A program made the translations under genes and the position numbers. Shown here piece by piece: positions 14,859 to 41,271 of a DNA stretch of 64,000 bases (position 1 is its first letter; every line of letters begins with the position of its first letter). The notes under the pieces were generated by a model. That model was given only the letters and a program-made list of their open reading frames with translations. It ran no database searches and was not told the DNA's origin. Source of the stretch: a phage; NCBI GenBank assembly GCA_024672275.1, contig GCA_024672275.1_4536.1; one strand, written 5' to 3'.

Positions 14859-16232
14859 ATGGCAACTTTTCGTGAAAAGGTAGCAACCGTAACTTTACTG
14901 TATGGTGCTACATCAATTCGTGAAACCCAGTTCGATATTCCCCTGATCCTTACAGGTCAGAACGTAACTGGCGAAGCGATTCAATATTACTCTTCTTCCG
15001 ATGCACTTTTGGAAGCAGGTTATGGATTAAATGATCCAGCGTATATTATGGCAGTCAAACTGTTTAACGGTTTGTTCCCACCAGATCAAGTCATGGTTGG
15101 TAAGCGTGAAGTTACAAACTTTACTCTAACTCCAATCGTAGAAGATAGTGCAACTTACACAATTACCATCAAAAATGGTACCAAGAAAAAAGAATTTAAA
15201 TTCATTGCTGATGACACTGCAACTGCACAAGAGATTGTAGTTGGTCTGACTGAAATGATCAATGCAGATCTTGTTTATGGCCCACTGTTTACAGTAGCTA
15301 ACAACGGCGCTGCAATGACTTTCACTCCAGTAGAAGGTAAGTTTGGTTCTATTGACAGCACAGGTTTCACTCAAGAAACTGTCTATGCTAATGCTATTAC
15401 GGAAGATATCGCTGCTCTGCATGATATTGATAGTAGCTGGTTCTGGACCCTTTCAGATTCCCATGAAACAGAAGATGTTCTAGCTTTGGCTGCATGGGTA
15501 GAAGAGAATGATAAAGTTTACTTCTTCTCTAGCTCTGAACCTGGGATTAAAACGAAAGCAGAAGATAACGTTCTGGAACGACTGAATGACCTCGGTTATA
15601 ATAACACTTGCTTTGCTTTGTGGATGACCGATGCAGATTCTGTATTCCCAGAAGCAGCAGTTGTTGGTGCAATCTGTTCTCGTCAACCTGGTTTAACTAC
15701 TCTTCACGGTAAAACACTGGTAGGTGTAGAGATCGAGAAACTGGATCAGACTTCGGAAAATAATATTGTTCAACAGAACGGTAACATCTATCGTAAAGAG
15801 CATGGAACTCTGTTCTATCGTGATGGATTGATGGTTAGCGGTTTCTTTGTTGACTATGTTGTTCATGCTTTGTGGTTTAAAGCTCGCACAGAAGAATCAC
15901 TGTTTACACTGTTTAAACAACAGTCTATGCTGGGTGGTGGTGTTCGTGCTACTTCAAACGGTCTGGCTTTGATTCGACAAGCTGTTCTGGCTAACCCGAT
16001 CCAAGTAGGTATCCTCAACGGTTCCATCGCTAACGAAGTTGTTACTTCTGAAGAGACTGGTTTGCGTGTCGATCTGAAACCTATTGTTTATATTCCTTCT
16101 CGTGCTGATATGACTGATGCGCAAATCAATGCTCGTCTGGTCGATGGGATGAAGATTGAATATGTTTACGCTGGCTTCTTCCATTACGTTAAAGTTCAGG
16201 TCAACGTCCTGACTAACCGTACTGCAAACTAA
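14859..16232 (+). CDS. putative tail sheath protein
   Basis: 457 aa; followed by a 159-aa tube-sized gene, a frameshifted chaperone pair and the tape measure (myovirus order sheath-tube-chaperone-TMP). Confidence 0.55.
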   Translation: MATFREKVATVTLLYGATSIRETQFDIPLILTGQNVTGEAIQYYSSSDALLEAGYGLNDPAYIMAVKLFNGLFPPDQVMVGKREVTNFTLTPIVEDSATYTITIKNGTKKKEFKFIADDTATAQEIVVGLTEMINADLVYGPLFTVANNGAAMTFTPVEGKFGSIDSTGFTQETVYANAITEDIAALHDIDSSWFWTLSDSHETEDVLALAAWVEENDKVYFFSSSEPGIKTKAEDNVLERLNDLGYNNTCFALWMTDADSVFPEAAVVGAICSRQPGLTTLHGKTLVGVEIEKLDQTSENNIVQQNGNIYRKEHGTLFYRDGLMVSGFFVDYVVHALWFKARTEESLFTLFKQQSMLGGGVRATSNGLALIRQAVLANPIQVGILNGSIANEVVTSEETGLRVDLKPIVYIPSRADMTDAQINARLVDGMKIEYVYAGFFHYVKVQVNVLTNRTAN

Positions 16233-22566: not shown

Positions 22567-23193
22567 ATGGGAATCCCTTTTGACTTAAAACTTGGACCAA
22601 ACAACGACCTCATCATGGACGATGGGGATTTGGTCCTTACCACAACCAGAACAGAAATTGCAGCACAAACTCTTGGGATAACTCTGAACACGTATCGTGG
22701 GGAGTGGTTTTTAAATACTAACTTCGGTGTTCCTTACTTACAAGAGATTATTGGTGTTGCTAGAAAGAAAGATATTGTAGACAGAATATTTTTAGCAGAG
22801 ATTGCCAAAAACGTTTACATAGATACAATAAACAGTTATAAATCTGCTTATGATATGGATCAACGTTATTACTCAATGACAGTTATGGTCACAGTTGGAG
22901 CAGATACAGTAACATCTATATTCAATACTCAACCTTCTGAAGAGTTTATTTACCCTGAAGCTGGCGAAGACAATGCAGCGATCATTTGTGAAGCTTACAG
23001 TATTGTTGAGAATTCGAATAGACTTTATCGCTTTATCAACTTTGTTGGTTTGCCACGTGATACCTACTCTACTTGGTGGAATGAATGGTCTACAGAGTCA
23101 GCAGTGGAAAGAATCATGGTTAACGAAAAAGGTGATGCATTAGCTACAAACAATGACTTCGGTATAACAGCTATGACAGGAGTAGAAGAGTAA
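22567..23193 (+). CDS. hypothetical baseplate-module protein
   Basis: 208 aa; operon context only. Confidence 0.35.
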   Translation: MGIPFDLKLGPNNDLIMDDGDLVLTTTRTEIAAQTLGITLNTYRGEWFLNTNFGVPYLQEIIGVARKKDIVDRIFLAEIAKNVYIDTINSYKSAYDMDQRYYSMTVMVTVGADTVTSIFNTQPSEEFIYPEAGEDNAAIICEAYSIVENSNRLYRFINFVGLPRDTYSTWWNEWSTESAVERIMVNEKGDALATNNDFGITAMTGVEE

Positions 23194-23666
23194 TGGCAGA
23201 TTTAACTACGATCAAAATTTCTGATCTTACACAAACAACCTCTGTGTCTGATACAGATTTCTTTGTAACAGATCAGGCTGGAATAACAAAGAAAACTTCT
23301 TTGAAAGTGCTGTTGAGTGGTGCAGGGGTAACTAGAAACCGTCTGAATGCACGGGGAACAGTAACTAGCACCTTGGCATTAGATATTAGTTCAGCAGAAT
23401 ATTTTTCTGCAACTTTATCTTCTGCAACGTGCACAATTAGTTTTACTAATATTCCAGTAGCAACAAATGCAGTTTTAAACTTTACTTTAGCTTTGCGTCA
23501 AGGAAGTGGTGCAAATAAAGTCGTATGGCCTTCTTCTGTAAAATGGAGTTTTGGTCGCCCCCCAGTTTTGAGTTATCGTCAAGGTGCAACAGACACTTTT
23601 GAGTTTATCAGTTATGATAATGGAGCAACTTGGACAGGTAGCTTAGTTTTAGCAGGAGTTATTTAA
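23193..23666 (+). CDS. hypothetical tail protein
   Basis: 157 aa; overlapping start/stop with neighbours. Confidence 0.4.
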   Translation: MADLTTIKISDLTQTTSVSDTDFFVTDQAGITKKTSLKVLLSGAGVTRNRLNARGTVTSTLALDISSAEYFSATLSSATCTISFTNIPVATNAVLNFTLALRQGSGANKVVWPSSVKWSFGRPPVLSYRQGATDTFEFISYDNGATWTGSLVLAGVI

Positions 23667-26542
23667 TGTCAAGAGTTAAGCACAATATTGACAACACGTT
23701 TCAGTTGATTGAAGGGTTGGTTCAGTTTTTGGAAAGAAATACTGGTCTTACCATAGATCCTACGGTTCAGCACTACATTATCAACCCACAAAACGTATTG
23801 GCGAACAACAGACACTTTATTAACTGGACAGCGCAGGAAGGGCAACCAAACGGTGACGCTACTACCGAAGGTCAATCTGTGCTTATCACTGGTTTTGCTT
23901 ATGCATATTTGGCTACAGGAGATAAAAAATATCTTGAATCTGCCGAGAAGTATTGGCAAGCCTATATAGATCACTTCTTCGGGGGCCAACCTATTCCTGA
24001 TCCTCCAGCTAAGTATCGTCCCAACTGGATCATCAATGGTAAAGAACCACGTTTAGCACACTACCCTCTCACAGATGATGGGTATCCTACGCACGGTGGG
24101 TTCAAAGGTAGCATGATGACTTGGATTAACGGAAGGACTGTTATTCCTAAAGGTGCGCCACATTGGGGAGAATACTTAGATAAAGCTTGGTTTGCTTTCA
24201 ATGGTAATCTTGGTTGGAACTCTGTTAACGCAACAGTGTATGCAACTAACCCAGATGGTTCAACCAACTGGAAAGAATATGGAGATCAGTGGGACGTTGA
24301 ATGGATTATAGATCGTCTAGGACGTAAAGTTGATTGGGATGGTAACATTTTATCTACAGGTCACAGGTTCGCAGAATATGGAACAGTGCAACTTAAAAAT
24401 ACTTCTGTGAACGGGGACTATAAATTCAACTACGCTACATGCAATCCTGTAGAACACGGTGGATATCTGCTTAAGCGTAATGAGATGTGGCATAACCGTC
24501 CTGTAAACGTTCCGGTAGAGTTAGGTTATCAAGACAATGCTTCCGATGCTGAAACGTGGTGGTGTGATGCAAACTACTTGATGTATCAGATCACAGGAGA
24601 GAGAAAATACTGGCTTTGCTGGCAATCTTCTTTATTGTTGTGTCAAGACTACTCAAACATCGATATGTTTGATAAATTCTTCCGTAGATCTACGACAGCA
24701 ATAATTCCTTTTACAGATGGTATCTCGTATGATTACTCATACCCATCTACAGCAATACCTAAATATTCTCGTGACGAGTTAGGATACACAGTAATTCGCC
24801 AAGATGTTGCAGCACAAACAACTCTAGAACAACAGGCAGTTTGGTTCAGAGTGGATCAGAATTCAAAACTGCGTATTGAGTTTCAAGGCGTAGATGATGC
24901 AGGGGAAGGTGTTCTTTTCCGTCCAGAGTTAGAATTAAGCAAGACTAAGAGTGAAACAGACACAGTGACATATCGTTGTGGCTTACCTCTTGGTGCAGCT
25001 AATATGACTAAGATGGATATACCTTTATCTAGTTTTATGCGCACCGAACCTCCTGGAGGTGGTGTATATATTATTGCTGAACCCAGAATTATTGTTGACT
25101 GGGGAAGCAATACTGTGATACAATATAAATATGCAACTGGTATTGCTGGGACAAATAGTGATCAGATAGTTTCTGCTAATATGGATTCAGATGGTGGTTT
25201 TACTGTTGGGTTTTGGTTAACACCAACTAAAACAGCCAATTTAAAATCTATTACATATCGTTCATACGCAGATGATTTTAACATCACTATTACGGATTCC
25301 GCAGGTTGGAGATGGTGGGCCATGTTAGAAAAAACAAATTCTGCATGGGTTACTAAAGCTTTAAGTCCTGCTGATTTCAAATTAAGCACTTGGCAACCCA
25401 ATCATAACGACACAGAGACAAAACCTTCGTCAATAAACCTGACTGCTGTTGATCAGATCAACATTGCATTGGATTCTGAACCTGCAAATGGCTTGACAGG
25501 GGCAATCGATTTTTATTGTGTTAACGATATCCCATCTTTGTATTCTTCAGCCGCTGGTGATGATTACACAATGTATTTCAGGGTTACAGTTTCATCTGAA
25601 AATCCTTATACAGCAAAACTTGGAGATTGTACAATACTGGACTATAAACTTGACAGTTTGAATTATACTCCAGGAATCATTCCATTTTCCAATATTAGTG
25701 ATCCTAACACAGCATTATATGACGGTTGGCGTGGTATTCCTTACCCAGGTTATCAATACCCATCCTTATATTGTTTTAAAGGGAGAGATATTGACTGGGT
25801 TCGTATGAACAACAGTATAGACTTTTTATATGATTCACAAATGTGGTTTTATAATAAGTTTGCCCCTGTAATGCCTGGGCCAATGGCACAAGCTTATGTT
25901 TGGGATCGTTGGGATGCTCATAAATATGGAAACAAAAATGAGTTCACAATGTATCATTGGAACGATAAAGCTTGGGATGGTTATGAAGCACGAGCATTCT
26001 TCTGTGCGTGTCATACGGTATACGAACTAAAGCGACGAGGAGCCGAAGTTCCTGAAAAACTTTTAACAGTTTGTAAAAACTGGATCAACTACCTGAAGTG
26101 GTTCCAAGATAACAACGAAGGAAGAACACCAACAATATTTTATCCCAACGGAGAAGTGGCTGCGCCTGTAGATGACTTTACAAGTCACATGTCTGCGCTC
26201 TTTATGGCGGGATGTGCTATAATGGGGATGGCTGGATATGATTCAGAAATTCCTAACATTAAAATAGTAGCAGACCGCTGTTTTGAACTTATTCAGGAAA
26301 ACTATATTGTTCTTGGTCCTAATCACGTTATGAATGGTTGTTGGAGTGCTGCTCCTAGACCAGACAGTGATAACGGAGTCTTCTTTGGCTTCCACGCTGG
26401 AGAGTTGTTACGTGGTTTTGGGTTGTATGCTTTATACAAAAAACTTAATCCCCAAAATGCATTACCTGTTTTGGATTCGAGCAATATTCCTGCACTTACT
26501 GTTTTGACAATGGCAAACATTAGTGTGGACGTTACCGAGTAA
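23666..26542 (+). CDS. large virion-associated protein, possibly a polysaccharide-degrading enzyme
   Basis: 958 aa; Trp/Tyr-rich segments (AYAYLATGDKKYLESAEKYWQ, AQAYVWDRWDAHKYG) suggestive of an alpha/alpha-toroid glycoside hydrolase or lyase; functional call is inference. Confidence 0.35.
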   Translation: MSRVKHNIDNTFQLIEGLVQFLERNTGLTIDPTVQHYIINPQNVLANNRHFINWTAQEGQPNGDATTEGQSVLITGFAYAYLATGDKKYLESAEKYWQAYIDHFFGGQPIPDPPAKYRPNWIINGKEPRLAHYPLTDDGYPTHGGFKGSMMTWINGRTVIPKGAPHWGEYLDKAWFAFNGNLGWNSVNATVYATNPDGSTNWKEYGDQWDVEWIIDRLGRKVDWDGNILSTGHRFAEYGTVQLKNTSVNGDYKFNYATCNPVEHGGYLLKRNEMWHNRPVNVPVELGYQDNASDAETWWCDANYLMYQITGERKYWLCWQSSLLLCQDYSNIDMFDKFFRRSTTAIIPFTDGISYDYSYPSTAIPKYSRDELGYTVIRQDVAAQTTLEQQAVWFRVDQNSKLRIEFQGVDDAGEGVLFRPELELSKTKSETDTVTYRCGLPLGAANMTKMDIPLSSFMRTEPPGGGVYIIAEPRIIVDWGSNTVIQYKYATGIAGTNSDQIVSANMDSDGGFTVGFWLTPTKTANLKSITYRSYADDFNITITDSAGWRWWAMLEKTNSAWVTKALSPADFKLSTWQPNHNDTETKPSSINLTAVDQINIALDSEPANGLTGAIDFYCVNDIPSLYSSAAGDDYTMYFRVTVSSENPYTAKLGDCTILDYKLDSLNYTPGIIPFSNISDPNTALYDGWRGIPYPGYQYPSLYCFKGRDIDWVRMNNSIDFLYDSQMWFYNKFAPVMPGPMAQAYVWDRWDAHKYGNKNEFTMYHWNDKAWDGYEARAFFCACHTVYELKRRGAEVPEKLLTVCKNWINYLKWFQDNNEGRTPTIFYPNGEVAAPVDDFTSHMSALFMAGCAIMGMAGYDSEIPNIKIVADRCFELIQENYIVLGPNHVMNGCWSAAPRPDSDNGVFFGFHAGELLRGFGLYALYKKLNPQNALPVLDSSNIPALTVLTMANISVDVTE

Positions 26543-26550
26543 GGGGTAAA

Positions 26551-28704
26551 ATGAAACAAGCTATATTTACTGTCACGCGAGACAAGAGAGTAAATGCGAG
26601 TTCATTTAACTACACGACTGTTGACGGAACAGCAGTCGCTGGTAGAGATTATATTGCAAAATCGGGAACACTTGTGTTCCCTGATGATGCTGATTCTGCT
26701 ACTATTGTGGTTGAAGTATTTGAACGACCAAAGAACTCAATAGATCTTAACTTCTCCCTCCAAGTTTCAGGGATTAGTCAAAATAACATGATGGTTGAAA
26801 CAACCATCAATTGTATTATAACTACTATCCAAGAAAATACTACTCCAATAACTTGGACTACAAAAGACGTTAAAATGTTCTCTCCTATGTATTGGACAAT
26901 AGATTCTCAAGCAACGGAAAGTTGTTCTATTGTATCTCATGGAGACTCTTTTACTGCAAGATTTGTAAACAGAACAACAGCAGGTTTGGCAGGGGTTATC
27001 TGGAGCACAGTTGACAAATATGACCATAAAGGTGTTGGGTATTTGCCTCACACAGATTTAAGTTCAGAGAAACTTTGGTTTAAAATGGAAATTAGTCAAA
27101 ACATGCCAGGTTTTAAAGAAGAACCTTTGGTGCCGACTTTGACTGTAACTCTCCTGGATAAAAGTGTTCATTATGTCAGTTTAGGATTCTACGCTTCAGA
27201 TATTTCAGAAGATGGTAAAACAGCCACAATAAAGTTAGATTTTAGTAATATCTTTTCTGGCCCTAATAATGATATTCCTTTGGATATGAGTGCTGTAGAT
27301 AATATTTTCTTCTCTTTGATTACAGCAAGGTATGAAAAAATAGAAGAGGTTGTACCTATTGACAGTCAAGAGGCTTGGTTTACTTTCACTCTTCTTGAAC
27401 CTACTTCTGGTTACAGTATGATGAAAGTCAGCAACCTTGTCCAGCCTGAACATGATATTCGCATGTGCACATCTTATGATGATATGTATAACCTGACTCC
27501 AGAGAGAGTTATTTATAATACATATGCACTAGGTTATCGTGGAATGATTAACCATTACAACGGAATGTCTCACTATTATGAGTTCTCATGGAACGGAACA
27601 TCTTGGGCTTTAAATAGATCTGTTTTCCTGAATCCGGCTACAGAAGCTTGGCTTAACAGTTTCCATTCTATAGCTAATGAAAATGGCTACACAATAATGA
27701 ACTCTTTGAGTTTTGAGTTGATGAGCACAGTTTGTCCTGTTGAATGGGTCCAGCATGATTGGAACGATGCTCTTGCAGCAACAGGGTATAAGCCTCCTAG
27801 TTACGTGTTGTCTCCAACTATTGACGAAGGCATGGAATATTTGCAAAATGTTATTAACAAAATAGCATCTATTTCTCAAGCTAATAACATTCCAGTCGTC
27901 ATTCAAATTGGTGAACCTTGGTGGTGGTATAATACAGCAAGTAAAATGCCTTGCATATACGATTACACTACCAAACTGGCATTCAACACAGAAACTGGCT
28001 TATTTGCACAAGATGCAGGAACAATAGATAATTATAAAACAGGAACGCCGTTTGACGAATACTATGCATTTTTGTCTCGTAAACTGGGGTTAAGAGTTAC
28101 AAAGTTTGCAACAGACACCAGAGCAACTTATCCTGGAGCTAAAGTAACATTGCTTCCGTTCTTACCGTCAATTATTGGCAACGGTTTGATGGAGAAAGTT
28201 AACTTTCCGTCTGATTACTACATTCCTGAAGCTTTTGATTTTTACTGTTCAGAGTGTTATGACTGGCTTCTGGAAGGTAAGATGATGAAAGCATTTGATG
28301 CAATTACCATACCACATGAAAAATTAGGTTTTGAATATTCTGATATTCACTATCTTTCAGGTTTTGTTCCAGATGCTACTCTTGCGCCTTTGTATGGCTT
28401 CGATCCTGAATCAAACTACCGCACGTATCTTTGGAAAATGATTATAGGTAATATAGTGTTGAACGCCAACAAGTTTAACGGACTTACACAATATATATGG
28501 GCCTATCCTCAAATAATGCACGATTCCATTACGGTAGTTAACTCTCAATCCCAAGTTTTCTATATGGGTAATGTGCCTTTGAATTGCTATTTGCAAGATA
28601 TCACTCTTAAACAAGCAAATGTTGAGATTGCTACCATAAGTGGAATTACATTAGCTACTAAATCTGGAGAAGATTTAGTAACAACACAAAAATTTTATAT
28701 ATAG
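26551..28704 (+). CDS. structural protein with N-terminal Calx-beta-like domain
   Basis: 717 aa; N-terminus TTVDGTAVAGRDYIAKSGTLVFPDDADSATIVVEV fits the Calx-beta motif. Confidence 0.4.
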   Translation: MKQAIFTVTRDKRVNASSFNYTTVDGTAVAGRDYIAKSGTLVFPDDADSATIVVEVFERPKNSIDLNFSLQVSGISQNNMMVETTINCIITTIQENTTPITWTTKDVKMFSPMYWTIDSQATESCSIVSHGDSFTARFVNRTTAGLAGVIWSTVDKYDHKGVGYLPHTDLSSEKLWFKMEISQNMPGFKEEPLVPTLTVTLLDKSVHYVSLGFYASDISEDGKTATIKLDFSNIFSGPNNDIPLDMSAVDNIFFSLITARYEKIEEVVPIDSQEAWFTFTLLEPTSGYSMMKVSNLVQPEHDIRMCTSYDDMYNLTPERVIYNTYALGYRGMINHYNGMSHYYEFSWNGTSWALNRSVFLNPATEAWLNSFHSIANENGYTIMNSLSFELMSTVCPVEWVQHDWNDALAATGYKPPSYVLSPTIDEGMEYLQNVINKIASISQANNIPVVIQIGEPWWWYNTASKMPCIYDYTTKLAFNTETGLFAQDAGTIDNYKTGTPFDEYYAFLSRKLGLRVTKFATDTRATYPGAKVTLLPFLPSIIGNGLMEKVNFPSDYYIPEAFDFYCSECYDWLLEGKMMKAFDAITIPHEKLGFEYSDIHYLSGFVPDATLAPLYGFDPESNYRTYLWKMIIGNIVLNANKFNGLTQYIWAYPQIMHDSITVVNSQSQVFYMGNVPLNCYLQDITLKQANVEIATISGITLATKSGEDLVTTQKFYI

Positions 28705-28712
28705 GAGTAAAA

Positions 28713-30017
28713 ATGTCAACTACAATTACTAATTTACCAGAAACATCAAAAGTTAATGGTTCTGATTACCTGGTTTTAGACCAATCTGATAAGACTGTTA
28801 AAAGCACAGTTTCCAACTTTCTTACTGACACTGGGGTGGTTTTAGCCACCCAGTTGAAAGATACAGATGGAGCAGATTTAATACAATCCTCAAATGGTAA
28901 TACTGTTCAGGAAGAGTTGAATAACAATCTTCTTAATAATCGTGAACAGTGGCGTCGTAGTCTTGCTGAGGCAGGGTTAACCCTTGTCAACGGTAGCTTT
29001 GAAGAAGGGGCTACAGTAAACAATAAGACGGATGCTGTTTGGCATATTGCTGGTGGGCAGTGCTATACGTGGGATGGTGCTTTCCCTAAAGCTGTTCCCT
29101 CTGACTCAACCACTACATCAACCGGTGGTGTTGGAACAGGTGCATGGGTTAGTGTTGGTGATGCATCTTTGCGTACTGATTTATCTTCATCTGATGGTGC
29201 TGGGCTTATTGGTGTTAGCTCTGGAGGGACAGTACAAGGCTCCCTCTCCGACATTAAGAACTTAATTAAGCACGCGCAGCCGCTTTCTGACAGACGCATC
29301 GTAGCTATTGCTCACCGTGGATATTCAGAGACGTATTTAGAGCAAACACTGATGGCTTACAGTCAATGTAATGCTGATGTATTAGAAGTCGATATGCAAA
29401 CTACATCAGATGGGTATGCTGTGTGCTTCCATGACAATGACTTGTCCCCTGCTACCGTAGGAGGTTCTGGGGCGGTAAAAGATAACACATACTCCACCGT
29501 TTCCGCATTACGTTTTACAAGAGCCGTCGGTACAAGATACGCAGACATGGCGGGCATACCGACATTGGGGTCAGTCTGCCGGATTGCTATGCGACGCGGT
29601 AAAATGCTTCACGCAGAAATAAAAGGCTACAGAACGTTAGAAGATTGCGCTCTTTACTCGAGCATAGTCAACCAATACGGCTTGAGTCCATACACCACAT
29701 TTTCATGCTTCGACTTCGCTCCGTTGGCATACACCCACAACATAAATCCGCGTATTACCTACGCACTAGAGTTAAACTCTTACGATAGTAGCATGGACGC
29801 TAACATAGCAGAGCTTGCGTCCTGGGGCGGGTCTGTGTTGTCTATAAACAAAAACATATTGAGCACTATAGGCAATAAGAAGCTTCGCGAGTGGGAGGCT
29901 ATGGGGCTTACTTTGGCCGCATGGACGATATACACGGCAGAACAAATGCAGACCGTTGCCAATTACGGCATACGTCTTGTATATCTGGATAAAGATTTTT
30001 ACAACATTATAGGTTAA
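28713..30017 (+). CDS. tail fibre-like protein with C-terminal glycerophosphodiester phosphodiesterase (GDPD) domain
   Basis: 434 aa; N-terminal fibre-like region then HRGYSETYLEQT ... LEVDMQTTSDGYAVCFHDNDL (HRG / E-x-D...T-x-DG...HD GDPD signature). Confidence 0.55.
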   Translation: MSTTITNLPETSKVNGSDYLVLDQSDKTVKSTVSNFLTDTGVVLATQLKDTDGADLIQSSNGNTVQEELNNNLLNNREQWRRSLAEAGLTLVNGSFEEGATVNNKTDAVWHIAGGQCYTWDGAFPKAVPSDSTTTSTGGVGTGAWVSVGDASLRTDLSSSDGAGLIGVSSGGTVQGSLSDIKNLIKHAQPLSDRRIVAIAHRGYSETYLEQTLMAYSQCNADVLEVDMQTTSDGYAVCFHDNDLSPATVGGSGAVKDNTYSTVSALRFTRAVGTRYADMAGIPTLGSVCRIAMRRGKMLHAEIKGYRTLEDCALYSSIVNQYGLSPYTTFSCFDFAPLAYTHNINPRITYALELNSYDSSMDANIAELASWGGSVLSINKNILSTIGNKKLREWEAMGLTLAAWTIYTAEQMQTVANYGIRLVYLDKDFYNIIG

Positions 30018-30022
30018 CTGAT

Positions 30023-30790
30023 ATGAAGCAAATTATTAACTCCCGCAATTTCTCACACTGGGACTTTTTAAACACTGGTTCTGGTACAACGATGGTTGTG
30101 CCGGATGGTAGGTTACGTATGCAAAACCCTGATGACTCAAGCAGAGCAATGGTGATTCGCGATATCATGCTAATGCCTGGGGATACTGTGACCATCTATG
30201 GTATTGGAAGGACAACGTCGTTATCATCAGGCGCATTTATAATGGGGGTGGAGTACCCTGTTGGCAAACGCCTCGCTCAAGCTAACTTTATCCATAACGA
30301 AGACAGCTTACTTCTTAAATGTTCATGGAAATGTCCGGTAGACGCCGAACCGTGCACTGTTAGGCTTGCTTGCGGTCTTCCGAAATCAACAACAGCCATT
30401 GCGTATATGACAGACTTATGGATCGAGATTGACTCTGAAAACTTGAGTAGTCGACGCATCTTAATGGACGGTGTTCTTGAGATAAACGCTGGTGTGGCAT
30501 CTATATCAACGGCATATGACCGTTGTAACGTAGGATCAATTAACGCGTCCAGCGTCAACGTTGACATTAGCCCAGCCGTCTTCACCGCAGGAGACCGTAG
30601 GCCTTTGGCGTTTGTCCAGCCGATTTTTAACACTAAAGAAACGTACTCATCCGGAGTTTTAATTCCTGTCGCTGACTTCACTAAGGCTGGGGTTCTAAAC
30701 ATTAGACTTCAAAACCCAGCTACAGGGAATCTCGTAGGTGTTACTGGAGCCAGTATTTACAAAACAATAGCTTTCACTGTATATATTTGA
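30023..30790 (+). CDS. hypothetical tail-associated protein
   Basis: 255 aa ORF following the GDPD fibre gene. Confidence 0.4.
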   Translation: MKQIINSRNFSHWDFLNTGSGTTMVVPDGRLRMQNPDDSSRAMVIRDIMLMPGDTVTIYGIGRTTSLSSGAFIMGVEYPVGKRLAQANFIHNEDSLLLKCSWKCPVDAEPCTVRLACGLPKSTTAIAYMTDLWIEIDSENLSSRRILMDGVLEINAGVASISTAYDRCNVGSINASSVNVDISPAVFTAGDRRPLAFVQPIFNTKETYSSGVLIPVADFTKAGVLNIRLQNPATGNLVGVTGASIYKTIAFTVYI

Positions 30791-30802
30791 TTGCAATACA
30801 CT

Positions 30803-30822
30803 AAAACCCCGCCGAAGCTGGG
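30803..30822 (-). terminator. terminator hairpin (minus-strand orientation; may act bidirectionally)
   Basis: minus-strand cccagc-ttcg-gcgggg hairpin followed by TTTT; same gcttcggcgggg core as terminator at 19569. Confidence 0.5.
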
Positions 30823-30834
30823 TTAGTTCTATCA

Positions 30835-30864
30835 TCAGAACGGAATATCGTCGTCGAAATCCAT
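30835..30864 (-). CDS. 9-codon micro-ORF encoding MDFDDDIPF (the SSB C-terminal tip peptide); near-duplicate of the ssb 3' end
   Basis: ATG 30864..30862, stop TGA 30837..30835; AAGGAGG at 30884..30878; 30835-30872 matches 44042-44079 at 34 of 38 nt. Confidence 0.25.
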   Translation of the reverse strand: MDFDDDIPF

Positions 30865-31029
30865 CGGAGGCTCATTACCTCCTTGTGGGCTTTATTGTTT
30901 GGGTGGCAGTTGCTGTTTATCAACCAAACCAACGCTGCGGTAGGTAGGGGGTTTTTGTTGTACCCCCTAACAAATTATTAGGTAGACTGTTTTAGTCAAT
31001 TACGACTTAACTAACCTGAGAAAGTCCCT

Positions 31030-31320
31030 ATGGGAAATGAACCAGATAACGTAACTCTAGCCAGACTCGAGGAGAGACTGAGAAACATTTTCGAAAACCA
31101 AACCCGTGAATCAAGGGAAAGGGAGAAAATGGAAGAGTCTATTAAAAAACTAAGTGAGTCTATGGGCGACCTTAGTAACCGACTTAAACGGGTAGAGGAG
31201 AGCATCACTAAGTCTGAGCCTACTATTGAAGAGTTCATCACCATTAAACATAAAGTTGCTGGTGCTGGAATTTTTGGCAAGTTGGCATGGGCTGTAGCAG
31301 GTGCAAATGGGCTTCATTAA
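31030..31320 (+). CDS. hypothetical coiled-coil protein with hydrophobic C-terminus
   Basis: 96 aa; charged coiled-coil then GAGIFGKLAWAVAGANGLH. Confidence 0.35.
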   Translation: MGNEPDNVTLARLEERLRNIFENQTRESREREKMEESIKKLSESMGDLSNRLKRVEESITKSEPTIEEFITIKHKVAGAGIFGKLAWAVAGANGLH

Positions 31321-31497
31321 GGTTCACACAAGCTATGTCCTGCAAGCGCATGTCATCGCCATGTGATAAAATGATGAAAACATATCGTAGCAGGGTTAAT
31401 CTTGTCTTTAGTTACTATCGTACTAACTCAAAGTGTTGTCACTACCACTGCAAGCCCCTCCAAAGAGGGGCTTACTTAGAAAAACAAAGAGGTTGTT

Positions 31498-31806
31498 ATG
31501 AACGAAATGTTCTCCCAAGGTGGTAAAGGTTCAACCGGAATCTTAACCAATAAACAAGCAGTAGCCCGTCACTTTGGAGTTAAACAATCTGAGGTTGTTT
31601 ACTTCTCAATTGGTGTGGATTTGGGTGGGTATAAGGTTATCTATGACAAGGAGACGCAAAGGGCGTATTCCCTACCTGCTGATATTGCCCCAGGTACTAC
31701 TGCCATTAGTCTTAGTGCTGCTGTACTTGTGCATTCAGCGGGTTCTGTAGACCTTGGGGAATTAGCTATATCTTGTGATTTAAAAAGTAATGAGAACGCA
31801 CTATGA
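31498..31806 (+). CDS. hypothetical protein (102 aa)
   Basis: ATG with AGAGG RBS; coupled to downstream membrane protein. Confidence 0.45.
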   Translation: MNEMFSQGGKGSTGILTNKQAVARHFGVKQSEVVYFSIGVDLGGYKVIYDKETQRAYSLPADIAPGTTAISLSAAVLVHSAGSVDLGELAISCDLKSNENAL

Positions 31807-32045
31807 GAAAATTTTTAATAGGTATGTTCTGTACATATCCCGATAATAAAGTCAGTTCTACGAAAGTCTGGAACGCTGTAGGCATGTCGGTTATGACAGG
31901 CATGTTTATCTTTTTAGGAATAGAAAAAGAAATTCCTGAATGGATGGGTTGGGCTTTTGTTTTCATGATAACCCCTTCTCGCCTCATGAAAAATCTTATT
32001 GATTTACGTTGGGGCAGATCACAATCTACTAAAGAGGATGACTAA
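31803..32045 (+). CDS. small two-TM membrane protein, holin-like
   Basis: 80 aa; two hydrophobic helices and charged C-terminal tail (RWGRSQSTKEDD); ATGA overlap with both neighbours. Confidence 0.4.
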   Translation: MRKFLIGMFCTYPDNKVSSTKVWNAVGMSVMTGMFIFLGIEKEIPEWMGWAFVFMITPSRLMKNLIDLRWGRSQSTKEDD

Positions 32046-33532
32046 TGGACGAATATGGTTTGACAGATGCGGGATTTGTAATCCCGACTTTTGACGATGT
32101 TCTAAACAATTATATGACAGCAGTAAAAAACACATTTGGTGCAGATGCAGCCACTTCGGAAGATACTGTGATCGGACAACTGTTTAGAATAATTGCATAC
32201 ACAGATTACACATTGTGGGAAGGTATGCAAGGTGTTTATAATACTCAAACACTGGATGGTGCAGAAGGTATTTATCTTGATGAAATCTTTTCTAAACGCG
32301 GTTTCTATCGAGCAGGTGCAGCAGCAAGTACAGGTTATGCATATGTTAAGAGTAATAACAAAGCAGCTTGGACTTATGAGCTAGGCACGGATATTTACTT
32401 CAACTCTGACAGTGATATGAACTACTATGTTAGCACACCAACTATGTTGAATGCTAAGATTGCAGCTTATCAAATCACTCGTGCTAATGCAACTGCTACA
32501 GGTGTTCCAAATATTACTTTTTATGCACAAAGTGCGGTGGATGGAGGACTAAACAGTAAAACACTTGCACCTGGTTCTTCTACATTTATAACCGATCTTG
32601 AAACTTTTATCAAGGCAAACTTAACAGAGGCTGATCGTAGTCTTGTATTTTCTGATTCTGGTAACTTGTCAATTGGTTTTACTTCTTTAACCAGTGATAC
32701 TCCAGTGGGACTAGTAACTCCTATCAAATTTTATGCTAGTGTTCCAGTTGGAACAAAATGGAGTGAAATTCCGGTAGTTGCAGCAGAGAAAGGATACAAT
32801 CCGGTGGGTGTGGAGTCTATTACAGGAATATCTTCTACCTTTACAGGTTATCTTGATAGTGGTAACTTCTATTCGTTTTCTCCTGGTCGAGATGTTGAGA
32901 CAGATGCAGAATTCCGCTCTCGTTTCAATGACAACGTTGACGAAGCTAACGCAGGGACACGAGCAGCTATTGTGAAAGCTCTGCTACTTACAGATGGTGT
33001 TACTAAGGTGAAGATTTATGATAACCCTACATTACATGATCAAGAACATGCTCCAGCTATGACTTTCCAGACTATAGTTTATGGTGGCAGTGCAGAAGAA
33101 ATTGCAAATGTTATCTATAAAACCAAACCAATCAACACTTTGACACACGGAACAACTAACATAACAGTTACAACAGAAGATGGAGGACAAGAAATTATTC
33201 GCTTCTCTCCTGGTGCTTCTGCTATGTATTCTGTAAAACTTGTTTATCAAACTGTCAACGGAACAACTTTAAGTGGAACAGAAAAACAAAACATCGTAGA
33301 AGCTTTACAAAACCTGCAAGCTTACTTTGAGTTAGGTTCTTCAGTAACGAACGATCAAATCAAAGGTGTTATTTATGCAGCACTTGCTTTTGGACGCTTG
33401 ACTTCTCTTCGTGTTTATGTTAAACTTAATACTGAGGATGACAGTAAATATACAGAGAATAATATAGTTCCTGCTTATAATGTTGTCCCTTCTTTTGACC
33501 TTGATAACATTTCTTACGAGTATGGAGTGTAA
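32045..33532 (+). CDS. baseplate J-like protein
   Basis: 495 aa; N-terminus MDEYGLTDAGFVIPTFDDVLNNY typical of baseplate J family; followed by gpI-position gene and a tail fibre. Confidence 0.55.
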   Translation: MDEYGLTDAGFVIPTFDDVLNNYMTAVKNTFGADAATSEDTVIGQLFRIIAYTDYTLWEGMQGVYNTQTLDGAEGIYLDEIFSKRGFYRAGAAASTGYAYVKSNNKAAWTYELGTDIYFNSDSDMNYYVSTPTMLNAKIAAYQITRANATATGVPNITFYAQSAVDGGLNSKTLAPGSSTFITDLETFIKANLTEADRSLVFSDSGNLSIGFTSLTSDTPVGLVTPIKFYASVPVGTKWSEIPVVAAEKGYNPVGVESITGISSTFTGYLDSGNFYSFSPGRDVETDAEFRSRFNDNVDEANAGTRAAIVKALLLTDGVTKVKIYDNPTLHDQEHAPAMTFQTIVYGGSAEEIANVIYKTKPINTLTHGTTNITVTTEDGGQEIIRFSPGASAMYSVKLVYQTVNGTTLSGTEKQNIVEALQNLQAYFELGSSVTNDQIKGVIYAALAFGRLTSLRVYVKLNTEDDSKYTENNIVPAYNVVPSFDLDNISYEYGV

Positions 33533-35235: not shown

Positions 35236-35781
35236 ATGATATTTACAAACTTTAAAAAATATATTCCTGAAGACCCTGAACTAAAAGAATTGGTAGAAGC
35301 AGAGAACATTCTTTTTCTTCGTTGCGACCAAGGTTACGATTGGTATGATTTACGTAGCACAGAATTCAATAACGATAAAATGAAAGTCGTTTTTGATGAT
35401 CAAAATCGTATTGTGTTTTGGAATACTGATCCTACACTACTTTGCCCTGAAGATCTTTCTATAGCACAAGTAGACTTTAATATAGATACTTTTGAGGATA
35501 TTAGGAACAAGGTTCTGGATTTAGAAACCTTAACTCTTAAGGATAAAGAGTATTCCCGTGAAGAGTTGATGACACAAGCTAGTGCAAAAATTCGCTCTTT
35601 ACAAGAAACAGCGGTAGCACTTATAACACCTTTACAGTATGCTAAAGATTTAGAAATGGCTACTGAAGACGAATTAGCTTATCTTAAAAATCTTCAAGTT
35701 TATGTAGTTAAACTAAATCGTGTTCCGCTTCAAAAAGACTATCCTTACGCTATAGATTGGCCTACATTACCGACAGAATAA
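35236..35781 (+). CDS. tail fibre assembly protein (Tfa-like chaperone)
   Basis: 181 aa; position after fibre gene; C-terminal ...DYPYAIDWPTLPTE typical of Tfa C-termini. Confidence 0.55.
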   Translation: MIFTNFKKYIPEDPELKELVEAENILFLRCDQGYDWYDLRSTEFNNDKMKVVFDDQNRIVFWNTDPTLLCPEDLSIAQVDFNIDTFEDIRNKVLDLETLTLKDKEYSREELMTQASAKIRSLQETAVALITPLQYAKDLEMATEDELAYLKNLQVYVVKLNRVPLQKDYPYAIDWPTLPTE

Positions 35782-39246: not shown

Positions 39247-41271
39247 ATGAATTTAACAAGACCTAATAGTGCGATAGCCGATCTGGTAGAAGCTACTTAT
39301 CGAAAACGTCGCAGCTTTGAGGCAGGTTTTACATTACGTAATCCCCGTGAAGTTTTGCTGTTAGCAGCAGAAGGGAATTATTACCAATGGAAAGGAACTT
39401 TTCCTAAAGTAGTTCCAGCAAACTCTACGCCAGCCACCACAGGTGGTATTTCTTCCCTTGCATGGCAAAATGTTGGGACCGCTGATGATATAGCAATTAT
39501 CAATGCCAAGTTTACGGCAGTGCAGCAACAGATCGATGATCTGTCGGAAACAATACCTGAAGCTGGTAAATCAGCTTATCAGATCGCACTTGATAATGGT
39601 TTTGTTGGAACAGAAGCACAATGGCTTGCTTCTTTGAAAGGAGATACTGGTGCTCAACTTAATATTAAAGGATCATTAGCAAGCACTAGTGAGCTACCAT
39701 CTACAGGTAACGTTGCAGGGGACGGTTATATCGTAGGCGATGTAATCTATGCTTGGGATGGTTCTGTTTGGAAACTTATTTCTTCTCTTGGGCCAGAAGG
39801 GAAATCAGCTTATGAGGTATGGTTGGCAGATGGTAATACAGGATCTGTTTATGATTTTCTTACCTCTATAAAAGGTGATAAAGGTGATATTGGTCCTACA
39901 GGGCCACAGGGAGCACCTGGTGTTAACGCCAACGGTTTTGATTATCGTGGGGATTTGCCTTCTACAAGTAACTTACCACAACCTAACTCTGAAAACGTAA
40001 GCCAAGCTTATTCTATCAATGGTAATCTTTATGTCTCTAATGGGACAGCTTGGGTCAACATGGGTAATATTGTTGGTCCTCAAGGTCCACAAGGTGAGGC
40101 AGGTAAAGACGGTCTTGATGGAACAGATGGAGATGAAGGGAAATCTGCATATCAAAGTTGGCTGGATGCTGGTAATGAAGGGACAGAAGTAGATTTTATT
40201 GCCTCACTTAAAGGTCCAAAAGGAGACAAGGGTGATCAAGGAGAGCGAGGTCCACAAGGTGAACTAGGTCCACAAGGACCAGTGGGTGCAACAGGATCAG
40301 GCTTAGAGATTATCGGGGTTCTGAACAGTGAAGCTGAACTTCCTCCTACTGGAGAAGTAGGTGATGCATATAAAATTAATAATGATTTGTATGTTTGGAT
40401 TCAAGATGCTACGGAATGGATGAATGTTGGCAGTCTTGGAGGAACATCAATTACAGCTAAAGGTCATGTTCCGAACAGTGAAGCTCTCCCTGTTTATAAT
40501 AACTATGGTGATGCCTATTTAACTGAAGACACTAGTAATCTTTATATCTATACCTACGATCAAGACACCAATTCCGCATCTTTTGTTGACATGGGAAGTA
40601 TTAAAGGCGACAAAGGTGAAAAAGGGGATAAAGGCGATAAGGGTGATCCTGGAACAAACGGAACTAACGGTACTGATGGGACCAACGGTAAAGACGGCGC
40701 ACAGTGGTTTGTAGCAACAACTAATCCAGTCGCAGGTGATGGTGTTATCAATGATTACGCTTTCAACACTACCACTGGAGCAGTGTTTAAGAAAACAGAT
40801 TCTTCTACATGGACACTTATAGGAACTCTTCCTAGTATACCAGAAGCCCCTCAAGATGGCTTGACGTATGGTCGTTCTGATGGTAACTGGATTGAAATAT
40901 CAGGATCAGATCCTACGGAAGCTATAACACCAACTAAAGTTACAGCAGGTTTCATGGAACTTGAAACAACTACTGCCAACTCTGGAGCATCTTGGACCCC
41001 TTCTGGAACTTCCAATATGTATGTTGTTACAGTAACCGATGCTTTAACAGTTGGAGCATGGCCTGGTGTCACTGGCTCTACAAAGCCTAAAGCGTTTTCA
41101 GCAATGATTTATTTGATTCAAGATACAACGGGACACACGGTTACACTAGATGCGTCTTATGGAGCACTGAATGATACAGAAATAGCAACTACTGCTAACG
41201 CAGTAACAATTTTGCAATTAACGTATCCTGGTGTGGGTGATATCGTGGACATGGTTGTTGTAACACGATAA
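39247..41271 (+). CDS. tail fibre protein with collagen-like Gly-X-Y repeats
   Basis: 674 aa; GDKGDIGPTGPQGAPG, GPQGPQGEAGKDGLDGTDG, GPKGDKGDQGERGPQGELGPQGPVGATG, KGDKGEKGDKGDKGDPGTNGTNGTDGTNGKDG; three copies of GKSAY..WL..GN.G...DF..S[IL]KG module. Confidence 0.6.
   Translation: MNLTRPNSAIADLVEATYRKRRSFEAGFTLRNPREVLLLAAEGNYYQWKGTFPKVVPANSTPATTGGISSLAWQNVGTADDIAIINAKFTAVQQQIDDLSETIPEAGKSAYQIALDNGFVGTEAQWLASLKGDTGAQLNIKGSLASTSELPSTGNVAGDGYIVGDVIYAWDGSVWKLISSLGPEGKSAYEVWLADGNTGSVYDFLTSIKGDKGDIGPTGPQGAPGVNANGFDYRGDLPSTSNLPQPNSENVSQAYSINGNLYVSNGTAWVNMGNIVGPQGPQGEAGKDGLDGTDGDEGKSAYQSWLDAGNEGTEVDFIASLKGPKGDKGDQGERGPQGELGPQGPVGATGSGLEIIGVLNSEAELPPTGEVGDAYKINNDLYVWIQDATEWMNVGSLGGTSITAKGHVPNSEALPVYNNYGDAYLTEDTSNLYIYTYDQDTNSASFVDMGSIKGDKGEKGDKGDKGDPGTNGTNGTDGTNGKDGAQWFVATTNPVAGDGVINDYAFNTTTGAVFKKTDSSTWTLIGTLPSIPEAPQDGLTYGRSDGNWIEISGSDPTEAITPTKVTAGFMELETTTANSGASWTPSGTSNMYVVTVTDALTVGAWPGVTGSTKPKAFSAMIYLIQDTTGHTVTLDASYGALNDTEIATTANAVTILQLTYPGVGDIVDMVVVTR

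Follow-up and report, generated by a model that had tools for sequence, protein, structure and literature searches.

Organization of the Receptor-Binding Locus

The DNA analyzed in this study is a window of 64,000 nucleotides (nt) from a phage contig (GCA_024672275.1_4536.1; NCBI GenBank assembly GCA_024672275.1), the sequence source being third-party (TPA) assemblies labeled E. coli. Between two baseplate genes, the window contains a receptor-binding locus encoding proteins of 157, 958, and 717 amino acids (aa), a 434-aa tailspike with a glycerophosphodiester phosphodiesterase (GDPD) domain, a 255-aa partner protein, and several gene remnants (Table 1). In an earlier note on this DNA, the block from 23193 to 31020 had been proposed to represent a horizontally acquired host-range island interrupting the baseplate genes. 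The piece truly acquired was found to be approximately 2.2 kb long (~29110–31306) and to lie inside a conserved locus. We are fairly confident that the region represents a three-layer receptor-binding locus with a recently swapped tailspike cassette.

A 17-kb stretch around the locus featured 96–98% identity at 81–88% coverage to Klebsiella phage ZCKP1, the Escherichia phages EF1-1, Ro121c4YLVW, and phAPEC8, and many others. On sequence grounds, the window belongs to the genus Phapecoctavirus (Stephanstirmvirinae) and represents a phAPEC8/ZCKP1-like myovirus of approximately 150 kb. The locus is embedded in a single long late operon on the plus strand (~14.8–41 kb), in which the sheath gene of the contractile tail (14859–16232) is followed by genes for the tube, chaperones, tape measure, tube initiator, plug, hub, central spike, and a 208-aa protein. 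The second part of the operon comprises the receptor-binding genes, Baseplate_J, a DUF2612 wedge protein, a short fiber and its chaperone, and further large spikes.

All open reading frames (ORFs) listed in the earlier note proved to be real. However, the gene ending at 23193, previously regarded as spike-like, encodes a gp25-like sheath initiator (PHROG 120; phi92 gp139), and the 157-aa gene at 23193–23666 had been overlooked. The gp25-like gene is a backbone gene forming the left border of the locus, and its position matches that of phi92 gene 139, the product of which was assigned as sheath initiator using cryo-electron microscopy (cryo-EM) (PMC13450770). At the right border, the Baseplate_J wedge protein corresponds to phi92 gp145, which was modeled as a wedge subunit and as the attachment point of fibers I and III in the cryo-EM study (PMC13450770).

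Table 1. Features of the receptor-binding locus and its borders (positions refer to the window).
Feature	Position	Strand	Remarks
208-aa gp25-like sheath initiator/wedge protein (phi92 gp139 equivalent)	22567..23193	+	PHROG 4233, PHROG 120 'baseplate wedge subunit'
157-aa small fiber/adaptor protein (phi92 gp140 equivalent)	23193..23666	+	PHROG 9017
958-aa conserved fiber protein (phi92 gp141 equivalent)	23666..26542	+	Predicted (alpha/alpha)6 glycoside-hydrolase-like barrel with beta-rich insertions
717-aa conserved fiber protein (phi92 gp142 equivalent)	26551..28704	+	Calx-beta, NCTSP_N, TIM barrel (PF03160, PF23844, PF23845)
Backbone part of tailspike gene	28713..29112	+	Phapecoctavirus-type anchor (aa 1–~90) and most of the Tail_spike_N neck
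Imported catalytic part of tailspike gene, GDPD TIM barrel	29113..30017	+	Pfam GDPD, aa 201–426
255-aa partner of GDPD spike, all-beta	30023..30790	+	N-terminal half a predicted carbohydrate-binding-module-like beta-sandwich
Degenerate hairpin, relic of bidirectional tailspike/ssb terminator	30805..30824		Aligns with AAAACCCCGCTTCGGCGGGGTT of VSt472, DS8, and L008
ssb 3'-end fragment	30835..30917	-	Reads ...SPQGGNEPPMDFDDDIPF*; 9-codon ORF 30835–30864
Truncated N4-gp63-like gene, 96 aa	31030..31320	+	PHROG 5211, positions 1–92 of 112
102-aa orphan ORF, N-terminal anchor domain of G7C gp63.1-type tailspikes	31498..31806	+	PHROG 18484 (1–94/770), PHROG 7992 (327–419/1163), others
80-aa membrane protein (phi92 gp144 equivalent), backbone	31803..32045	+	PHROG 1322; kept in phAPEC8, ZCKP1, and phi92
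Baseplate_J wedge protein (phi92 gp145 equivalent), right border of locus	32045..33532	+	Pfam PF04865

Borders and Origin of the Acquired Cassette

Similarity to ZCKP1 ends at 29165 and returns at 31141, and similarity to phAPEC8 ends at 28873 and returns at 31808. In a nucleotide search of 50,697 phage genome records, the cassette interval was covered by none of them. The G+C content at third codon positions (GC3) ranges between 0.43 and 0.48 across 29166–31029 versus 0.22–0.32 in the flanking and backbone genes. Contained in the cassette are the catalytic part of the GDPD spike (GC3 of 0.46), the 255-aa partner gene, a decayed terminator, a 3' fragment of an ssb gene, and a truncated gene related to N4 gp63.

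By contrast with the phage records, the window aligned without a break from 29070 to 31306 to a 72-kb contig of a G7C-like podovirus (L008; 2,264 nt, 89%). The left junction (~29110–29165) is located at the end of the Tail_spike_N neck, in a shared segment in which the parental phage types are only ~70–80% identical; here, identity to ZCKP1 dropped from ~90% to 36% and identity to L008 rose from 59% to 97% (100-nt bins, 29113–29212). Upstream of this point, the spike gene (28713–~29112) shares 89–100% identity with ZCKP1; downstream of it, the GDPD part shares 94–98% nucleotide identity with L008 and two further contigs (L009 and L011). The right junction (~31141–31306) lies inside the truncated gp63-like gene, which is 92–98% identical to L008, SP5M, and PhAPEC7 up to ~31306 and 39% identical thereafter, similarity to ZCKP1 being present from 31141 on.

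The first ~92 aa of the 96-aa gp63-like product match a 110-aa podovirus protein, which is full-length in podoviruses, encoded beside holin and endolysin, and annotated in PhAPEC7 as 'similar to N4 gp63'. Since a core podovirus gene is truncated here, the segment appears to have moved from a G7C-like podovirus into the myovirus, and a G7C-like podovirus is the putative donor type.

Further podovirus-type DNA follows downstream. The region of the 102-aa orphan ORF showed 81% nucleotide identity to the 5' end of the PhAPEC7 tailspike gene and parallels the N-terminus of the L008 spike. The ORF is present in frame in ZCKP1 (gp113) and PaulScherrer (bas60_0028; 84% nucleotide identity) and is absent from phAPEC8 and phi92; it may represent the remnant of an earlier spike or a retained adaptor/plug. 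Between the gp63-like gene and this ORF, a non-coding stretch of ~190 nt (31307–31497) shows 100% conservation with ZCKP1 and is found in parts also in L011, an 88.6-kb contig (SRR21977512); a 79-aa ORF called at 31287–31526 was without support. In L011, a 197-nt patch is 99% identical to window positions 31683–31879, implying a very recent exchange with a phapecoctavirus. Elsewhere in this contig, only nrdD matched phage records (74%, rV5-like phages).

Conservation of the Remaining Locus

The 157-, 958-, and 717-aa genes, accounting for ~6 kb of the proposed island, belong to the conserved core of the subfamily, as judged from gene order and sequence. The order hub, spike, gp25-like gene, small fiber, and ~900–960-aa gene was the same in phAPEC8 and ZCKP1 (Phapecoctavirus), PaulScherrer and phi92 (Justusliebigvirus), MaxBurger (Vequintavirus), and SalP219 (Seunavirus). 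For MaxBurger and SalP219, which represent a second subfamily, the shared order covers only the 157-aa/958-aa-type pair among the island genes. The lengths encoded by phi92 genes 140 and 141 are identical (157 and 958 aa), gene 142 encodes 719 aa, and homologs of phi92 gp140, gp141, gp142, and gp144 lie in that order between the gp25-like and gpJ-like genes. The window thus shares the gene content and order of the phi92/phAPEC8-type locus together with its single variable tailspike position (phi92 gp143) behind a conserved N-terminal anchor. This locus has been described before as the 'multivalent adsorption apparatus' of the phi92-like phages, which was reportedly presented by Schwarzer et al. 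in 2012.

That the whole block from 23193 to 31020 was acquired as one accessory host-range island breaking the baseplate operon is therefore very improbable. Its gene order is the same in every examined member of two genera, the 157/958 pair recurs in two more, and relatives carry the 157-, 958-, and 717-aa genes in the same order as here. Identity within the genus amounts to 96–99% across 23193–29112, and the three genes feature a GC3 of 0.22–0.32 (0.30 for the 717-aa gene), equal to that of the surrounding structural genes, so that only 29166–31029 is atypical in composition. Breaks in similarity to the relatives were confined to 28873/29165, with similarity returning at 31141/31808; within the proposed island, only ~29113–31140 was missing or dissimilar in close relatives. 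The proposal of a single island nevertheless has a basis in the locus, considering that the gp25-like and gpJ-like genes are adjacent in phage phiEa21-4 and 9 kb apart here, that the intervening proteins are enzymes or fibers rather than canonical baseplate parts, and that the pair of adaptor and 950-aa protein occupies other genome positions in unrelated phages. What remains of the acquired island is the cassette, as defined by its junctions, composition, and donor type.

The same observations bear on the age of the conserved part. In the FelixO1-like phage phiEa21-4, the adaptor/~950-aa pair is located downstream of an unbroken gp25-like/gpJ-like block, suggesting that the insertion between these two genes dates far back, to the ancestor of Stephanstirmvirinae and Vequintavirinae. 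The pair was also found at other genome positions in Ounavirinae, Loughboroughvirus (ZCSE2), and T7-like phages; it seems to constitute a mobile module itself, at a much deeper evolutionary depth. It would seem that receptor-binding modules have long used this locus as a landing site.

The 157-aa protein is composed of a short lineage-specific N-terminus and a conserved C-terminal domain of ~100 aa matching the C-termini of many 'tail fiber' PHROGs. This domain shares 36–48% identity with counterparts in rV5-like phages, Seunavirus, phiEa21-4, ZCSE2, and the T7-like phage Kaonashi. In all of these phages, the small adaptor gene is positioned immediately upstream of the ~950-aa gene and the N-termini differ by lineage, which is the pattern of an adaptor docking a common distal enzyme onto different tails. 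Probably, the C-terminal domain holds the 958-aa protein, while the N-terminus docks to the tail. The N-termini of the adaptor (MADLTTIKISDLTQTTSVSDTDFFVTDQAGITKKTSL, window 23193–23320) and of the GDPD spike (MSTTITNLPETSKVNGSDYLVLDQSDKTVKSTVSNFL, 28713–28830) show a loose common motif (..L......SD...V.DQ....K.S), which may be a common baseplate docking peptide.

For the 958-aa protein, in which a possible alpha/alpha-toroid enzyme core had been noticed before, an (alpha/alpha)6 glycosidase-like toroid fold was indeed predicted. Neither sequence membership of a specific glycoside hydrolase (GH) family (GH8/GH76/GH88/GH105-like) nor conserved catalytic acid/base residues were found in the protein. 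In 57 phage records, its identity amounts to at least 99%, compared with 83% in Justusliebigvirus.

The Calx-beta-like domain assigned to the 717-aa protein in the earlier note is present, together with domains of the N4 gp64/gp65 type (NCTSP_N, E 1e-16; TIM-barrel_NCTSP, E 5e-79; Pfam). Among PDB entries, the protein matched 9lc0_M (N4 gp64, E 7e-30) and 9lc0_I (N4 gp65, E 1e-12). Its identity amounts to 96–99% within Phapecoctavirus, 77% to Justusliebigvirus, and 43% to rV5-like phages, the recorded coordinates of the rV5-like homolog being outside the inspected stretch beside the ~900-aa gene. The TIM barrel is shared with gp64 and a further domain with gp65 of the heterodimeric non-contractile sheath of N4 (PDB 9lc0, 9yf4; PMC13434306); unlike these, the 717-aa protein is a single chain with an additional Calx-beta domain in a contractile-tailed phage. 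In the literature, the N4 gp64-like fiber of this conserved locus is treated as a lateral fiber and was proposed to recognize a conserved glycan, e.g., the enterobacterial common antigen (ECA); phi92 gp142 was not placed in the cryo-EM map of phi92 (PMC13450770).

In a metagenomic protein of 1,557 aa (P0143), the 958-aa family is joined to both NCTSP domains of the 717-aa protein (NCTSP_N and TIM-barrel_NCTSP). This natural fusion suggests that the 958-aa and 717-aa proteins work as one unit. Other homologs of the 958-aa family are 1,595–1,657 aa long and possess different C-terminal extensions (PF21722).

The GDPD Tailspike and Its Partner

The GDPD-domain fiber recognized in the earlier note corresponds to a 434-aa spike with an intact GDPD domain. 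Pfam Tail_spike_N is located at aa 92–150, and the GDPD match (PF03009) reached 76.1 bits versus a cut-off of 23.6, with PDB matches to GDPD structures at E 1e-10. The motifs HRG (201–203), ExD (225–227), HD (240–241), and EIK (302–304), which represent the catalytic and metal-binding motifs of the GDPD family, are intact. The spike has the modular composition of tailspikes, namely a lineage-specific anchor, then a conserved neck, and at the C-terminus an enzymatic domain that can be exchanged; no beta-helix family was matched, the GDPD TIM barrel taking the place of the classical trimeric beta-helix body. The likeliest candidate substrate for binding and cleavage by the spike is a phosphodiester-linked (teichoic-acid-like) surface polysaccharide, either a capsule or an O-antigen.

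Within phage genome records, the GDPD part achieved at best 28% aa identity, the matches being mostly to phages of Gram-positive hosts, with identities of about 25% to their GDPDs. Lactobacillus phage Ld17 and its relatives are among these matches (23–24% identity), and glycerophosphodiesterase (GDPD) activity has reportedly been found in the Ld17 baseplate. The Ld17 protein, which shares the Pfam family and likewise forms part of the adsorption device of the virion, is the closest characterized enzyme analog. In contrast to Ld17, the host of the window phage is a Gram-negative enterobacterium lacking teichoic acid, the GDPD domain is part of an anchor–neck–GDPD architecture, and a separate partner protein is encoded.

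No match to this 255-aa partner was obtained in a protein search among phage genome records; informative homologs of the spike and the partner came only from a large metagenome protein collection. In the contigs examined, the 255–256-aa gene was always positioned 5–12 nt downstream of the GDPD spike gene. The contexts of the gene pair comprise the 72-kb N4/G7C-like podovirus contig (L008), two 40-kb T7-like contigs, an 88-kb large-phage contig, and siphovirus-type prophages of E. coli and Proteus. The N-termini ahead of the GDPD part differ accordingly (G7C-type anchor, Phage_T7_tail, P22 Head_binding, prophage types), at least five different anchors preceding the same catalytic part; in L011 (6001–8817), for example, the same GDPD and 255-aa cassette follows a P22 Head_binding N-terminus. 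The divergence of spike and partner is correlated (96/83, 94/88, 95/94, 64/66, and 57/48% identity). These sequence relationships identify the GDPD spike and its 255-aa partner as a two-gene module for receptor binding that is mobile.

Alternatively, the 255-aa protein could serve not as a structural partner but as a chaperone in assembly, or as an accessory protein directed at the host, that simply travels with the spike gene. Tail fiber and tailspike genes often precede dedicated chaperone genes (e.g., the 181-aa tail fiber assembly gene at 35236–35781), and the 255-aa protein has no recognizable anchor domain. We regard this explanation as rather unlikely. The beta-sandwich predicted for the protein is of the carbohydrate-binding-module (CBM)/lectin type, resembling distal tailspike domains and not a known chaperone fold, whereas the strict adjacency and the correlated divergence are compatible with either role.

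In siphovirus-type prophages of E. coli (L018, 5757–8806; 17 contigs), an Acyl_transf_3 gene follows the spike and partner genes on the opposite strand. Acyl_transf_3 genes are typical of O-antigen-modifying serotype conversion, and this neighbor hints at a surface polysaccharide as the target of the module. It is conceivable, though we advance this only tentatively, that the spike and its obligate CBM-like partner constitute an uncharacterized two-component phosphodiesterase depolymerase for phosphodiester-linked capsules or O-antigens of Enterobacterales, circulating among siphovirus prophages, T7-like and N4-like podoviruses, and large myoviruses. If so, the hydrolase, lyase, and esterase depolymerases known from Gram-negative phages would be joined by a further enzyme class.

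The ssb Fragment and the Terminator Relic

Downstream of the partner gene, the earlier note had described an antisense mini-gene for the tip of the single-stranded DNA-binding protein SSB, with its own terminator. The minus strand reads ...NEPPMDFDDDIPF* as first noted. The reading comprises nine codons and belongs to an ssb fragment; an in-frame TAA (30892–30894) precedes its ATG by nine codons, and the adjacent hairpin folds no better than shuffled sequences. Folding energies of -9/-11.2 kcal/mol (z -1.3/-0.8) were calculated for the window compared to -15.6/-14.2 kcal/mol (z -3.8/-2.7) for VSt472.

The origin of the fragment can be traced in siphoviruses of ~45 kb. Window positions 30826–30917 share 85–88% identity with the 3'-terminal parts of intact ssb genes from such phages, e.g., the Skatevirus VSt472 and the Deseoctovirus DS8. 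In phages of this type, ssb is encoded on the opposite strand, tail-to-tail with the tailspike gene, with a strong bidirectional terminator between them. Both the hairpin and ~90 nt of the siphovirus ssb can be aligned base for base to the window as well as to G7C-like phages, and the hairpin region is annotated as a terminator in PhAPEC7. A bacterial-type SSB gene is not present in the fragment, which is limited to ~83 nt of 3' homology and contains no coding sequence for the OB-fold. Direct capture from the host chromosome is not supported; E. coli genomes yielded only 44-nt chromosomal ssb matches and one unannotated 88-nt match, and phage ssb genes matched the fragment better and over a longer stretch than the chromosomal ssb of E. 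coli. The fragment is thus a non-functional fossil carried along as passenger DNA, and it keeps the record of an older move of the tailspike cassette from a siphovirus to the podovirus lineage and on to this myovirus.

A functional role of the mini-gene would imply that the 9-residue peptide MDFDDDIPF, or an antisense RNA with its own terminator, mimics the tail of the host SSB and competes for SSB-interacting proteins. The nine codons, read from an ATG to a stop codon, have the same meaning as those of the E. coli SSB tip; a hairpin follows on the minus strand, and the peptide reading is kept in SP5M. However, homology to ssb continues upstream of the ATG, across the in-frame TAA and into the Gly/Gln/Pro-rich linker, as is typical of a gene fragment, and the Shine-Dalgarno-like AAGGAGGT merely encodes QGG of ssb. 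Copies in other phages carry non-synonymous changes that destroy the acidic tip (MDFNDSIPF in L008, MGPDNSIPF in PhAPEC7). The hairpin is weak, and the fragment is antisense within a late structural operon. The sole promoter-like match on this strand (30923–30894) is weak (9/12 consensus), the number of such matches in the region does not exceed the shuffle expectation, and a scan for promoters and terminators around the ssb remnant revealed nothing significant. Considering that the tailspike–ssb arrangement of the siphoviruses fully accounts for the fragment, the probability of a functional mini-gene is close to negligible.

In the copies of the podovirus and the siphovirus (L008, L012), the hairpin has remained intact, but the window copy carries stem-disrupting changes. 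The weakening may have been selected to permit read-through, because a strong terminator would be situated upstream of essential wedge genes of the same operon.

Proposed History of the Locus

The oldest of the three layers is the two-gene module of the 157-aa adaptor fiber and the ~950-aa (alpha/alpha)6 glycosidase-like protein. The middle layer is represented by the 717-aa N4 gp64/gp65-related protein, fixed at this position across the subfamily, and the youngest by one exchangeable tailspike slot equivalent to the phi92 gp143 position. In this slot, the resident spike kept its own N-terminal anchor and neck, and everything downstream was replaced. As ZCKP1 already carries the distal gp63-like remnant, the simplest mechanism would be homologous recombination with a G7C-like podovirus between two shared handles, probably during co-infection. 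The crossovers would have occurred in the shared Tail_spike_N neck (~29110–29165) and in the gp63-like remnant already present in phapecoctaviruses (~31141–31306). The import delivered the GDPD domain and the translationally coupled CBM-like partner of 255 aa, along with passenger DNA (decayed terminator and ssb 3' fragment) that the podovirus lineage had inherited from a siphovirus with the convergent tailspike and ssb arrangement. The new spike would cleave a surface glycan and the partner would supply glycan binding, so that one adsorption arm may have been retargeted.

Several points weigh against this history. The direction of transfer is deduced solely from the truncated gp63-like gene and from composition, and we infer from sequence both that the 255-aa partner binds the spike and that the 157-aa protein carries the 958-aa protein. 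A GDPD depolymerase acting on enterobacterial polysaccharide was not found in the literature searched (E. coli capsules, K2 included). Furthermore, both junctions fall within segments that are similar in both phage types, and the source is a third-party assembly labeled E. coli.

The latter two points would also be expected if the cassette were an assembly artifact, i.e., if reads of a co-occurring G7C-like podovirus had been joined into a phapecoctavirus contig at the two shared segments; a search of the contig index for the exact hybrid spike retrieved no independent contig. Against such a mis-join, the hybrid spike is in frame with its domain order intact, the exact hybrid protein is recorded under two NCBI accessions, and the ~70–80% identity of the parental types in the left segment offers poor ground for a k-mer mis-join. 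ZCKP1 and other relatives independently carry gp63-like and G7C-type remnants at the slot, so that exchange of this kind really occurs there, and the unrelated contig L011 joins the cassette to window-like downstream DNA. An artifact is hence a very slim prospect, and a recently swapped tailspike cassette remains the preferred explanation.

Comparison with Known Systems and Significance

The layout and protein lengths of the locus correspond one-to-one to genes 140–144 of the phi92 adsorption apparatus (157, 958, and ~717 aa, spike slot, membrane protein, followed by wedge J), with 77–83% identity for the conserved proteins. The slot of phi92, in contrast, is occupied by the endosialidase gp143 with an intramolecular chaperone domain, whereas the window features a GDPD spike, a separate partner, and podovirus remnants. 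Variation at the phi92 gp143 position was reported previously (PMC10269720).

With the gp63.1 locus of G7C/Gamaleyavirus (N4-like podoviruses with a branched receptor-binding protein), the window shares the spike body, the partner, the intergenic region, the start of the gp63-like gene, and the Tail_spike_N neck, and its orphan 102-aa ORF equals the anchor domain of the G7C type. It differs in the Phapecoctavirus anchor of the spike, the myovirus baseplate operon, and the GDPD domain. G7C gp63.1 acts on O-antigen, one source naming deacetylation and another cleavage (PMC10408124). Pas et al. (2023) described the exchange of tailspike receptor-binding domains across genera, Gamaleyavirus and Justusliebigvirus included, with the anchors being kept (PMC10408124). 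The window likewise shows a retained N-terminal anchor and a C-terminal receptor-binding part replaced across taxa; unlike the cases of Pas et al., two genes and flanking non-coding DNA were exchanged here, recording two earlier hosts of the cassette.

The event is an ordinary exchange of a tailspike cassette at the known variable slot of a known conserved locus, and no new kind of genetic element is involved. Cassette exchange of this type is an ordinary phage route to a change in host range. New are the slot occupant (GDPD with a separate partner, not present in deposited phage genomes), the exact junctions, and the two-step fossil trail. Definition of the fixed and exchangeable parts of the phi92/phAPEC8-type fiber locus is useful for annotation and engineering, and the natural crossover points (end of the Tail_spike_N neck and gp63-like remnant) could guide host-range engineering of broad-host therapeutic phages. 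The rare GDPD–partner module may target phosphodiester-linked surface polysaccharides, for which no phage depolymerase was found described in the literature searched. Finally, the passenger DNA bears witness to successive tailspike transfers involving three phage morphotypes.

Further Observations

Many records named 'Campylobacter phage' (MG0656xx, host C. jejuni) are 98–99% identical in the genes of the locus to phapecoctaviruses of E. coli or to rV5-like phages; the names or hosts of these records look unreliable. Toward the end of the operon, a 674-aa protein at the position of phi92 gp151 (39247–41271) carries a Tail_spike_N-type motif (YYQWKGTFPKVVPANSTPATTGGIS) almost at its extreme N-terminus and is without the long anchor found in the GDPD spike.

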